NCBI GenBank assembly: GCA_012813795.1
Contig: GCA_012813795.1_4087.1
Reading direction: 5' to 3' (one strand)
DNA length: 64,000 nucleotides
DNA from: a phage
Translations under genes and position numbers: made by a program
Shown here: positions 61,498 through 64,000 of the stretch, in pieces
Layout: each line of letters begins with the position of its first letter
Position numbering within the stretch: the stretch's first letter is position 1
The notes under the pieces: model-generated
Told to the model about the DNA's origin: nothing
The model's input: only the letters and a program-made list of their open reading frames with translations
Database searches by the model: none

Positions 61498-61900
61498 TTA
61501 CGTAATCCTCATACTGTTCGTATACACGCATTATACTCTGATATGTCACAAAGTCAATACCAAAGGTATCATCAATGAACTGATATTGCATAAACTCTTC
61601 CTCGGTAGCACCAATAGGAAGTGTGCCGTTTCGTTGATCGTTTGATTGAACATCTTCAATGTACATCAAACCTATACTTTCATCTAAAGTGATATCTATC
61701 ATAAAAACATCTTCACTATAAAACATGTTATATGAACGGATGAAAAGATTACCAGTTCTATCAAAACTTGATACATGTGTTTCAACGTAGGTTCTATCTA
61801 AACTAAAGAATAAACCAGTACCATCGGGTTTTCGTTGGTCTTTCAATTTAATTTCGATAGCATCAAATATCGGTTTAATATTAAACTTTTTCATAAGCAA
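61484..61900 (-). CDS. hypothetical protein, tandem paralog B
   Basis: 138 aa; C-terminal half (QYQFIDDTFGIDFVTYQSIMRVYEQYE) parallels paralog A. Confidence 0.45.
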   Translation of the reverse strand: MLMKKFNIKPIFDAIEIKLKDQRKPDGTGLFFSLDRTYVETHVSSFDRTGNLFIRSYNMFYSEDVFMIDITLDESIGLMYIEDVQSNDQRNGTLPIGATEEEFMQYQFIDDTFGIDFVTYQSIMRVYEQYEDYVIGRY

Positions 61901-62076
61901 ATCACATACTTATTACTATGTGGATCGTAACAGTAAGAGTCGTTCACCTTAATGCCAGGTTTGAGTTCCAGGGTTGTACCCATTTCAGTACTGGGTTCTG
62001 CATCACAATAAATCATCACACCAATGCCACCGAGTAAGGCTATGATACATATAACTGCACCTATTGTATATTCCAT
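61891..62076 (-). CDS. small predicted membrane protein
   Basis: ORF track start 62079 is GTG; ATG at 62076 has an AGAGGT RBS. One hydrophobic segment (AVICIIALLGGIGVMIY). Confidence 0.4.
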   Translation of the reverse strand: MEYTIGAVICIIALLGGIGVMIYCDAEPSTEMGTTLELKPGIKVNDSYCYDPHSNKYVICL

Positions 62077-62093
62077 CACTATACCTCTGTTAT

Positions 62094-62179
62094 AAAAAGT
62101 AATTATACATTTTATTGTACAATATAAAAAGGTCTTAAAAAGTAATTATACATTTTATTGTACAATATAAAAAGGTCTT
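62094..62179. repeat. perfect 43-bp tandem direct repeat, two copies
   Basis: AAAAAGTAATTATACATTTTATTGTACAATATAAAAAGGTCTT at 62094-62136 and again at 62137-62179; spans the 3-prime end of ORF 62112-62525 and the region upstream of the small membrane protein gene. Confidence 0.9.
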
Positions 62180-62525
62180 TCACATTATCATAAGTAATGT
62201 TAGATAGATCATAAATCAATGATAACTGAAAAAATGAAGCTTCGTCTATATCTACTGGGATTATAACATCATCATCTTCTGCCATTTTATTATCGTAGTA
62301 TTTTATGTGGTCTTCATTAAACTCAATAGAGATTGATACTGCGTTGGATTTCATATCTTCAATTAATCCAATCAAATTAGATTTATCATTAATAAAAAAT
62401 CCAATTCCAACCCTACGGTCATCTGGATATGGATAGTACCATCTATTAAATACTAGACTATCTGGTAAATCAACATCATGTGTTGATACGAGAGATTTTA
62501 CAATTTCCATCCAAGCATAATTCAT
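62112..62525 (-). CDS. hypothetical acidic protein
   Basis: 137 aa; 3-prime end overlaps the 43-bp tandem repeat; RBS GGAG. Confidence 0.45.
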   Translation of the reverse strand: MNYAWMEIVKSLVSTHDVDLPDSLVFNRWYYPYPDDRRVGIGFFINDKSNLIGLIEDMKSNAVSISIEFNEDHIKYYDNKMAEDDDVIIPVDIDEASFFQLSLIYDLSNITYDNVKDLFILYNKMYNYFLRPFYIVQ

Positions 62526-62540
62526 AATTAAAACTCCATA

Positions 62541-62567
62541 AGAAAAGGGACAGAAATAATCTGTCCC
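62541..62567 (-). terminator. hairpin terminator after hpf
   Basis: GGGACAG-AAATAAT-CTGTCCC followed by TTTTCT on the minus strand. Confidence 0.55.
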
Positions 62568-62576
62568 TTTGTTATA

Positions 62577-62909
62577 TTACTCTTCTTCGTCAGTTACATC
62601 AACTACAACTGGACGGTCTGGATGGTTTCGGTGGTGCAATTTAATGCTTTTGTCTTTACTGAATACAGTTTCCATTTTTTCGAATGAATCGACAATCGCC
62701 TTGTATAAATCTGCATCATCGGCAGTAACAGACTTACCACCTGATGTTAAAGTTACTGCGTACTGTGTCTTATGCTCTTTTTTCACATGAACACCAATAT
62801 TCAGTACTGAAGAATCACTAAATTTATTTAGAGTGTTTGCTTCTTGATGAATTGCGTCATGGATTGCTGGAGTAATATCAACATTACCTTGAATAACTAG
62901 ATTTAGCAT
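62577..62909 (-). CDS. hpf: ribosome hibernation promoting factor / RaiA-family homolog
   Basis: 110 aa; LNLVIQGNVDITPAI...VHVKKE...VTLTSGGKSVTADDADLYKAIDSF...KLHH follows the HPF/YfiA pattern as recalled from E. coli HPF; followed by a hairpin terminator. Confidence 0.75.
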   Translation of the reverse strand: MLNLVIQGNVDITPAIHDAIHQEANTLNKFSDSSVLNIGVHVKKEHKTQYAVTLTSGGKSVTADDADLYKAIVDSFEKMETVFSKDKSIKLHHRNHPDRPVVVDVTDEEE

Positions 62910-62923
62910 ACTTCACCTTCCTT

Positions 62924-63853
62924 TTATATTGAGCTTAACAAAGTATCCGCTCTGTTTGTTACTTGCCTATACCATAAGGAATTTTTGATTTCTCTTTTAA
63001 ACTTCTTATGATTTTCAGCTTCAGCACTTCTCCATAGTTTATTAAATGAGGCCAACTTATCAACACCCATCGTGTAAGCCATGTCAAAGAGAATACGTTG
63101 TTGGTCTTTTGTAAGATTTACTGCATTTTTTTTCTTCATTAGAGTTGTAAAGTCATTATATGTCCTTTTCAAATCTTGAAGTAATAGTTTATGTGCTTGT
63201 GCTTTGGTAATACCGTTTCTGTACTTAATTGCATCAGATTCACGTGGACCGAGGTAGTGACCATATGCGATTGTGTAGTTACCTTTCATATCCTTATAAG
63301 GATGAAATTTTGAATTGTAGAAAGGAACTCCAACTTTTCCCCCAAGTAAACGTCTTTTGTTCTTGGACTGAAATTCAATTGAACCTTCAGCTTCTTTGAT
63401 GTGTGCTACTATTTCAGGATCATTATAATCGAAAAGTACTACCACATCAGGTAACAGTACGTCTTTCAAATCCTCTTTTGTTGGGATAAAGATACCCTGC
63501 GATGTATGAAGTTTAGCATTAAGATTGATATTCTTCAATACTGTAACGTAATCATCTAACAACACATTATGCGGTTTAAACTTCTTAGCTATCGAATGAT
63601 AACTATCACCGTATTCAACAGTATAATGTTTCTCGCTGCCCGGAACTACTTTAGGTGTATACCCTTTGGGTAATTCCTGCTTTTGAATTTGTGTAACTTG
63701 CGGTTTTAAATTGTGCACCTGACTTTCGCCCGATGATGATGCACGACCATGATGAGAAAAACCATAAAAAAATCCAAACGCAGCGATGATAACAAGTGAA
63801 ACTAATAAGCCTATGGCTGTCTTAGTTTTAGGTGTTTGTATCGCTATTGTCAA
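62924..63853 (-). CDS. membrane-anchored LysM + T4-type (GH24) lysozyme (candidate signal-anchor endolysin)
   Basis: 309 aa; N-terminal hydrophobic segment (AIGLLVSLVIIAAFGFFYGF), LysM-like YTVEYGDSYHSIAKKF, C-terminal lysozyme motifs (EAEGS...YKDMKG...YTIAYGH...LWYRQVTNRA). Start is TTG with a GGAGG RBS 5 nt upstream. Confidence 0.7.
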   Translation of the reverse strand: MTIAIQTPKTKTAIGLLVSLVIIAAFGFFYGFSHHGRASSSGESQVHNLKPQVTQIQKQELPKGYTPKVVPGSEKHYTVEYGDSYHSIAKKFKPHNVLLDDYVTVLKNINLNAKLHTSQGIFIPTKEDLKDVLLPDVVVLFDYNDPEIVAHIKEAEGSIEFQSKNKRRLLGGKVGVPFYNSKFHPYKDMKGNYTIAYGHYLGPRESDAIKYRNGITKAQAHKLLLQDLKRTYNDFTTLMKKKNAVNLTKDQQRILFDMAYTMGVDKLASFNKLWRSAEAENHKKFKREIKNSLWYRQVTNRADTLLSSI

Positions 63854-63972
63854 AAACGCCTCCTTTGTTTGCGTGTTATGATGAGCAATTACAAAGAGGG
63901 CTTATGAGGCCATTTGCAAAAGCCTCATCGGACTTTCTACAATACTGAACTGTTCTTACTGAACATTTAAGT

Positions 63973-64000
63973 AGTATAGCATACTTTTTTGTTATATCAA
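63973..64000 (-). promoter_or_regulatory. sigma70-like promoter (TTGATA-N16-TGCTATACT) at window edge
   Basis: Minus strand reads TTGATA, 16-nt spacer, TGCTATACT; upstream of the LysM-lysozyme gene. Confidence 0.45.

Follow-up and report, generated by a model that had tools for sequence, protein, structure and literature searches.

A divergent RaiA-like member of the HPF/RaiA family encoded downstream of a lysozyme gene in 121Q/Munch-like jumbo phages

The minus strand of a 64,000-nucleotide stretch of phage DNA (contig GCA_012813795.1_4087.1; hereafter the window) encodes a 110-residue protein of the HPF/RaiA family, which is RaiA-like in its architecture and belongs to a clade confined to 121Q/Munch-like jumbo phages. 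Ribosome hibernation factors are stress tools of the host, with which bacteria park idle ribosomes. A phage copy implies viral manipulation of the state of the ribosome pool, and it bears on phage replication in starved or dormant bacteria as well as on phage therapy against non-growing cells. By analogy with cellular members of the family, this RaiA-type, vertically inherited protein probably binds idle host ribosomes and silences them as 70S particles, a reading that is preferred here with reservations. Both the observation and the family assignment of the initial annotation are correct, but the gene is already annotated in related genomes and phage HPFs have been published, so that the finding is a known one. 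The analysis adds that the jumbo-phage clade is RaiA-like rather than HPF-like, that it is old and has been inherited vertically within a fixed gene neighbourhood, and that it is under purifying selection and has a conserved acidic C-terminal motif.

The gene and its flanking signals

The open reading frame occupies positions 62577-62909 and consists of an ATG start, 110 codons in all and a TAA stop codon; the boundaries listed for it at the outset proved exact. The gene and the elements around it are as follows.

62544..62570, minus strand: terminator-like hairpin GGGACAG-N7-CTGTCCC, then TTTTCTT, 3' of the HPF stop codon
62577..62909, minus strand: coding sequence of the HPF/RaiA-family protein, 110 aa, stop codon included (open reading frame list, Pfam PF02482, identical protein at NCBI)
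62580..62615, minus strand: predicted disordered C-terminal tail, residues 99-110, with the acidic end DVTDEEE (pLDDT < 50, conservation)
62649..62888, minus strand: envelope of Pfam PF02482 in the HPF protein (Pfam, AlphaFold2 secondary structure, Foldseek)
62910..62923, minus strand: Shine-Dalgarno region AAGGAAGGTGAAGT, abutting the ATG on its 5' side (read from the sequence)
62924..63853, minus strand: membrane-anchored phage lysozyme gene (Pfam PF00959, synteny)
63973..64000, minus strand: candidate sigma-70-like promoter for the lysozyme-HPF pair (consensus scan)

The lysozyme gene, which precedes the HPF frame on the same strand, stops 14 nt before it begins, and AAGGAAGGTGAAGT reads as a good ribosome-binding site for it. 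The hairpin downstream of the gene is rich in G+C, and phage Munch has an annotated terminator at the equivalent place. Upstream of the lysozyme gene, the promoter candidate is composed of TTGATA, 16 nt and TG-c-TATACT, agrees with the consensus at 10 of 12 positions with an extended -10 element, and is kept in seven of eight aligned relatives. The lysozyme and HPF genes are probably co-transcribed. Considered as repeated promoter motifs, TGCTATACT and TGTAGAAAGTCC showed no enrichment within the window and were unusable for assigning a temporal class, and in an Rfam search of window positions 62000-64000 no score came close to a gathering threshold. The HPF gene and the window match in G+C content (36.3% and 36.6%).

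Family membership and predicted fold

The protein scored 40.8 bits on Pfam family PF02482 (Ribosomal_S30AE), whose gathering score is 23.7 (E = 3.8e-10), and its residues 8-87 corresponded to profile positions 5-84 of 88. This match spans almost the whole domain, in agreement with the HPF/YfiA pattern that had been described along the length of the protein. Chains of HPF proteins in the PDB were matched by sequence with E values from 2.6e-7 to 1e-3, among them 9t0z (2.6e-7), Thermus HPF 6gzx (6e-6) and Thermus protein Y 2ywq (1e-5). An AlphaFold2 model built from 11 orthologues (mean pLDDT 75) has predicted strand 2-8, helix 14-30, strands 36-46, 49-56 and 59-65, and helix 68-85, plus a short extra helix; as modelled, this is the topology of HPF. 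Residues 99-110 of the model were disordered (pLDDT < 50). When the model was compared with the PDB by Foldseek, ranks 1-33 were all chains of HPF, RaiA/YfiA, protein Y, plastid pY or mycobacterial MPY/RafH, mostly bound to ribosomes, with TM scores of 0.6-0.77 and target-normalised values of up to 0.77; the Escherichia coli HPF structures 6h4n_x and 2rql were matched as well. Proteins of phages GAP32 and PBECO4 are included among its structural neighbours in BFVD. The HPF/RaiA-like identity that the initial annotation had claimed is thus borne out by a Pfam score above threshold, by the PDB chains and by the predicted fold, and the outcome that would have spoken against it, a lack of significant profile or structure similarity to the HPF/RaiA fold, is clearly contradicted by Pfam, the PDB chains and Foldseek.

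The more specific NCBIfam models were not reached. The HPF/YfiA equivalog TIGR00741 gave 34.9 bits, below its cut-off of 40.9, the HPF equivalog NF007780 gave 19.9 bits (cut-off 125) and the RaiA equivalog NF007654 gave 17.1 bits (cut-off 158). Since the latter two scores both lie far under their cut-offs, the choice between HPF and RaiA by these equivalogs (19.9 vs 17.1 bits) is uninformative. Judged from its sequence, the 110-aa protein is a divergent member of the family and an orthologue of neither E. coli HPF nor E. coli RaiA. Dodecin (PF07311) also appeared as a candidate with 20.5 bits, under the threshold of 22.5, and was again weak and sub-threshold in NCBIfam; it was rejected, no dodecin being present among the listed Foldseek matches and the fold search giving no support to it.

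Comparison with RaiA, short HPF and long HPF

The HPF/RaiA family comprises three architectures, namely long HPF, short HPF and RaiA/YfiA. Long HPFs (Gram-positive, Thermus and pY type) have a C-terminal dimerisation domain and a total length of about 180-200 aa, short HPFs have about 95 aa and require RMF for the formation of 100S particles, and RaiA/YfiA proteins consist of the short form followed by a flexible C-terminal extension. With 110 aa and without the second (dimerisation) domain, the phage protein differs from long HPFs. It differs from short HPFs as well, having a tail of about 15 residues, an NF007780 score of 19.9 against 125 and no significant pairwise BLASTP match to E. coli HPF. 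A short protein with a disordered extension past helix 2 and no dimerisation domain corresponds to the architecture of RaiA, and E. coli RaiA, at 24% identity and E = 7e-4, is the only E. coli paralogue that pairwise BLASTP picked up. The protein of the jumbo-phage clade is therefore RaiA-like by architecture, though not a RaiA orthologue.

The likeness to E. coli RaiA (YfiA, protein Y; 113 aa) lies in the disordered extension of about 15-20 residues beyond helix 2, in the acidic end of the tail (EEVEEE in RaiA, DVTDEEE in the phage protein) and in the lack of a dimerisation domain in either. The two proteins differ in that the phage protein is only about 24% identical, scores 17 against 158 bits on the RaiA equivalog, has R83 -> T and K91 -> I at basic contacts and is more acidic overall; furthermore, the phage gene is located beside a lysozyme gene in a lytic jumbo phage, whereas E. 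coli RaiA is under cold-shock or stationary-phase control. With E. coli short HPF (YhbH, 95 aa), which forms 100S particles together with RMF, the phage protein has in common the fold and the predicted binding surface, on which K80, K87 and K89 of HPF and the aromatic residue at position 30 are kept, but it adds the tail, and the phage genomes are without the RMF partner. No RMF homologue was found among 50,697 phage records with a query whose sequence had been verified.

The acidic C-terminal tail noted at the outset was confirmed: the last 12 residues, RPVVVDVTDEEE, carry a net charge of -4. An alignment of 11 orthologues has 37 invariant columns, D104, E109 and E110 among them, and a tail with the consensus DLTEDEE. 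The C-terminal motif D-L-T-E-x-[DEN]-E persists in Hallingskeid, Munch and Kae01, and related acidic C-termini are present in the closest metagenomic representatives (P0016-P0020). Acidic tails are also common to many cellular relatives of 105-125 aa. In ribosome structures the RaiA extension heads to the RMF site, and its last ~12 residues have never been resolved (bioRxiv 10.1101/2025.10.07.680626).

Ribosome-contact residues, charge and selection

The contact residues to 16S rRNA and uS9 reported for enterobacterial HPF were mapped onto the phage protein through an alignment of 70 sequences, not by superposition onto the ribosome. In this sequence alignment, eight of the 12 mapped ribosome-contact positions are kept, namely K29, F30, E45, T53, K78, K85, K87 and H/R93. 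Of these, F30 is equivalent to Y30 of HPF, which stacks on A790, and K78, K85, K87 and H/R93 are equivalent to K80, K87, K89 and H95, respectively. The remaining four contacts are changed: K26 -> T, D75 -> V, R83 -> T81 (R83 of HPF contacts m4C1402) and K91 -> I89. The residue pattern fits a canonical surface that would still be in use, possibly with altered affinity. The whole protein has a pI of 5.6 and a net charge of -6 and is thus more acidic than E. coli HPF or RaiA. For eight Asteriusvirus orthologues the Nei-Gojobori method gave dN/dS ratios of 0.12-0.27 at dS of 0.4-1.9, and the HPF gene is accordingly under purifying selection.

Phage relatives and earlier annotation

Identity over the region amounts to 98% with Escherichia phage A4 and to about 80-83% with 121Q, PBECO4, slurp01, phAPEC6 and other Asteriusvirus genomes of ~350 kb; the protein is phage-encoded, as the initial annotation stated, its genome being that of an Asteriusvirus jumbo coliphage. 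In a protein search the gene turned up in 43 phage records, almost all being genomes larger than 300 kb, and 39 of the 43 cover at least 80% of the query. Besides Asteriusvirus, the records matched include Erwinia phage Hallingskeid (44% identity) and Salmonella phage Munch and Klebsiella phage fENko-Kae01 (34% each). The Asteriusvirus orthologues (121Q gp533, PBECO4, phAPEC6 gp292, slurp01, Sharanji, UE-S1, Turkey5) occupy the same position and are 72-99% identical, and nothing material separates the copy in the window from them; from the A4 copy it differs by one residue, H93, where R93 is otherwise conserved. The extent of the family depended on the search: a word-indexed protein search returned 14 close relatives only, an exhaustive HMMER search gave 64 matches at E <= 1e-3 but only six at E <= 1e-10, and a scan of IMG/VR with the family alignment returned solely phage 121Q itself.

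The orthologues of 121Q and PBECO4 are named 'HPF/RaiA family ribosome-associated protein' in RefSeq, and the identical protein of the window stands at NCBI under the same name (P0001). Other records use 'ribosome-associated inhibitor A', 'ribosome hibernation promoting factor' or 'sigma 54 modulation protein / S30EA'. The term 'sigma-54 modulation' is how the hpf locus was formerly labelled and refers to no demonstrated activity. In ON286972 (A4_529), MH383160, KM507819 and others the gene is mislabelled 'putative sigma factor', 'putative sigma' or 'putative sigma 54', which is an annotation error inherited from the old name. That the 110-aa protein is indeed a sigma-54 modulation protein or a sigma factor is given practically no credence: its sole support is the name that the family once bore, 'sigma 54 modulation protein / S30EA', whereas neither Pfam nor NCBIfam gave a match to any sigma-factor family, and the fold and the PDB neighbours are those of ribosome hibernation factors. 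The GenBank label is a historical misnomer with no supporting domain, and the identity was rejected as contradicted by fold and profiles.

Phage HPFs were described in 2019 by Mizuno et al. in rV5-like coliphages and in the jumbo Cronobacter phage GAP32 (PMC6375957), and the Sharanji genome paper counts the gene among translation factors (PMC11895373). The silencing or stabilising of ribosomes and the countering of host shutdown, both suggested in the initial annotation, had already been proposed by Mizuno et al. (PMC6375957). When expressed in E. coli, the rV5 HPF was not recovered with the 70S or 100S fractions after a high-salt wash and left the ribosome profile unchanged (PMC6375957). Experimental work on the function of phage HPF/RaiA proteins beyond that study was not found in the literature searched.

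The rV5-like (Vequintavirinae) and GAP32 HPFs resemble the protein studied here in being phage-encoded PF02482 proteins of 105-111 aa from large enterobacterial myoviruses, and the GAP32 protein K4F6Q6 is a structural match in BFVD (TM 0.69; 22% identical). Compared with the rV5 type, the protein studied falls in a separate, divergent clade confined to the 121Q/Munch-like jumbo phages. The rV5-type HPFs share about 44% identity with E. coli HPF and appear to have been acquired from the host more recently; when E. coli HPF served as the query, rV5-like and Campylobacter phage copies were retrieved at ~43-44% identity. The 121Q/Munch-like clade was not recovered at E <= 1e-3 by tblastn with either E. 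coli HPF or E. coli RaiA, so that the two groups of phage genes are of separate origin.

Three sibling Asteriusvirus isolates grown on Salmonella have internal deletions in the HPF gene: SD-15_S21 (L007 3001-3225), SD-1_S14 (L015 2499-2651) and SD-2_S15 (L016 2436-2615). One deletion is in frame and removes residues 22-57, and the other two shift the frame. These genomes are smaller than those of their relatives by 24-40 kb and contain fragmented neighbouring genes, and the deletions may be natural knock-outs or laboratory losses, or else assembly artefacts. The gene would thus be dispensable under some conditions, unless the shortened assemblies are artefactual. A search of representatives also returned P0015, a protein of 1605 aa in which a unit of 53 residues, with a weak resemblance to residues 45-81 of the family profile, is repeated in tandem about 29 times almost unchanged; P0015 is apparently an artefact, of assembly or rolling-circle type, rather than a relative.

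Gene neighbourhood

In every relative examined the HPF gene lies downstream of the membrane-anchored lysozyme gene, which belongs to Pfam PF00959 and in 121Q carries the RefSeq name LysM-domain protein. The two genes are directly adjacent in the Asteriusvirus genomes, in Hallingskeid and in a metagenomic contig, and are separated by one or two small genes in Munch and Kae01. The order continues with a few small genes of unknown function, followed by a CCA-adding tRNA nucleotidyltransferase, a NUDIX hydrolase and a glutaredoxin, and in the Asteriusvirus genomes a macro-domain gene is located slightly beyond the glutaredoxin. In the window, the following lie downstream of the HPF gene.

59197-60309, minus strand: CCA-adding tRNA nucleotidyltransferase
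58694-59110, minus strand: NUDIX hydrolase
57378-57890, minus strand: weak macro-domain match

This gene order is kept in 121Q, A4, phAPEC6, EJP2, Hallingskeid, Munch, Kae01 and the metagenomic contig of 103 kb, and the synteny holds even where the HPF is only ~33% identical. It follows from the conserved order across relatives that the HPF gene is an old, vertically inherited part of the 121Q/Munch-like jumbo-phage lineage.

The genes at 57378-60309 on the minus strand form a cluster related to RNA repair and ADP-ribose, between whose members the relatives have the glutaredoxin gene; in Hallingskeid an RNA ligase is located upstream. Together with the HPF gene, this cluster looks like a neighbourhood for maintenance of the translation apparatus. 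Between a 40-aa frame and the gene of the CCA enzyme, the frame at 60313-60939 (minus strand, 208 aa) matches PHROG 953, an HNH homing endonuclease, over positions 198-402 of 420 only, that is, its C-terminal half. There is nothing at this place in 121Q and a frame of 355 aa in A4; the frame probably represents a mobile homing-endonuclease insertion in truncated form and the chief point in which the window differs locally from A4. The adjacent, overlapping genes at 61075-61497 and 61484-61900 (minus strand) encode paralogous proteins of ~140 aa, both belonging to phrog_20693 (function unknown).

Expression and virion content

The homologue of fENko-Kae01 (34% identical) was detected by LC-MS/MS in an ultrafiltered lysate rich in non-structural proteins, which indicates that the homologous protein is made. 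In phAPEC6 the HPF orthologue gp292 is absent from the published list of 62 virion proteins and is hence an intracellular, non-structural protein. The lysozyme orthologue of the same phage, gp293, was undetected in virions.

Proposed function and alternative explanations

The protein most likely acts, as we infer by analogy with ribosome-bound HPF/RaiA structures, by occupying the decoding channel of the 30S subunit in idle host ribosomes, which would yield inactive 70S particles. The phage protein would bind non-translating host ribosomes by inserting itself into the channel that separates the head of the 30S subunit from its body, where it would cover the positions of the A- and P-site tRNAs and of the mRNA. 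Contacts would presumably be made through the aromatic F30 and through K78, K85, K87, K90 and R94 of helix 2, and the bound ribosomes would be kept as inactive 70S particles protected from nucleases. Silent 70S monomers seem likelier than 100S dimers, given the lack of a dimerisation domain, the lack of a phage RMF and the RaiA-type tail; by the same analogy with RaiA, the tail may exclude the RMF of the host. The probable benefit for the phage is a host ribosome pool that would remain intact and reversibly controllable during the long infection by a jumbo phage or in starved hosts. Several observations count against this explanation, namely the negative result with the rV5 HPF (PMC6375957), which however belongs to a different clade, the four changed contacts, the higher acidity and the missed NCBIfam equivalog cut-offs; in addition, the gene may be dispensable, given the three Salmonella-propagated relatives with internal deletions. 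The gene is a reasonable but not urgent target for experiments.

The same data can be read in other ways. In the main alternative, the HPF/RaiA site would be occupied only weakly or transiently while the tail blocked RMF; when an infected or starved cell attempted to close down translation, ribosomes would then escape being locked as 100S dimers by host RMF/HPF and would stay free for phage mRNAs. Such an anti-hibernation role has been proposed for viral HPFs, and high salt removed the rV5 HPF from ribosomes (PMC6375957). The RaiA-like tail is in keeping with it, the tail of RaiA pointing at the RMF site, as is the lack of an RMF gene among the 50,697 phage records, and the loss of basic rRNA contacts together with the greater acidity would fit weaker binding; the site, however, is shared with tRNAs, so that any occupancy would block translation too, and this competitor role is considered possible but rather unlikely. 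It is more doubtful still that the HPF fold has abandoned the decoding centre altogether and that the strictly conserved DLTEDEE now binds elsewhere on the ribosome or to a protein of phage or host, possibly in a module for translation or RNA repair with the nearby CCA-adding enzyme. Conservation of the C-terminal motif, which exceeds that of much of the core down to ~33% overall identity, would agree with such a new function, and so would the four altered canonical contacts, the constant linkage with the genes of the CCA-adding enzyme, NUDIX hydrolase and macro domain, and the negative rV5 result (PMC6375957). Against it, the protein has kept most contact residues along with the aromatic one at position 30, and acidic disordered tails are common in cellular RaiA-type proteins as well.

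A further idea may be offered as a tentative suggestion of low probability, according to which the protein is a specialised variant whose DLTEDEE motif and altered rRNA contacts would override host hibernation or a translation-targeting defence, by excluding RMF and host HPF or by shielding the decoding centre from ribosome-directed toxins; it might also act with the CCA-adding enzyme, NUDIX hydrolase and macro domain as a translation-maintenance module. Finally, the three different internal deletions in the Salmonella phages SD-1, SD-2 and SD-15 could be taken to mean that the gene is decaying or dispensable, a passenger that plays no part in infection. The dN/dS ratios of 0.12-0.27, the synteny across distant relatives, the homologous protein detected by mass spectrometry and the intact gene in other Asteriusvirus records matched over most of its length all contradict this, and the SD assemblies are short and fragmented, so that the deletions may be artefacts or laboratory losses. 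In view of the selection and synteny data a passenger gene is unlikely, and we regard it as a highly improbable explanation.

The leader of the lysozyme gene

The leader at 63854-63972 (minus strand) of the lysozyme gene at 62924-63853 contains about 100 nt that are more conserved than the flanking coding sequence, with an invariant TGTAGAAAGTCC and a GAGGC...GGCCTC hairpin; it gave no match in Rfam. An anti-Shine-Dalgarno element, GCCCUCUUUGU, is predicted to pair with the lysozyme ribosome-binding site, ACAAAGGAGGC (dG -34.2 kcal/mol, z = -2.8). The pairing of GCCCUCUUUGU with ACAAAGGAGGC is kept in eight phages, with one compensatory pair and several one-sided changes. The arrangement resembles that of the T4 lysozyme (gene e), the ribosome-binding site of which is sequestered in early transcripts. 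If the lysozyme site were sequestered as modelled, HPF would be translated while lysozyme is silent.
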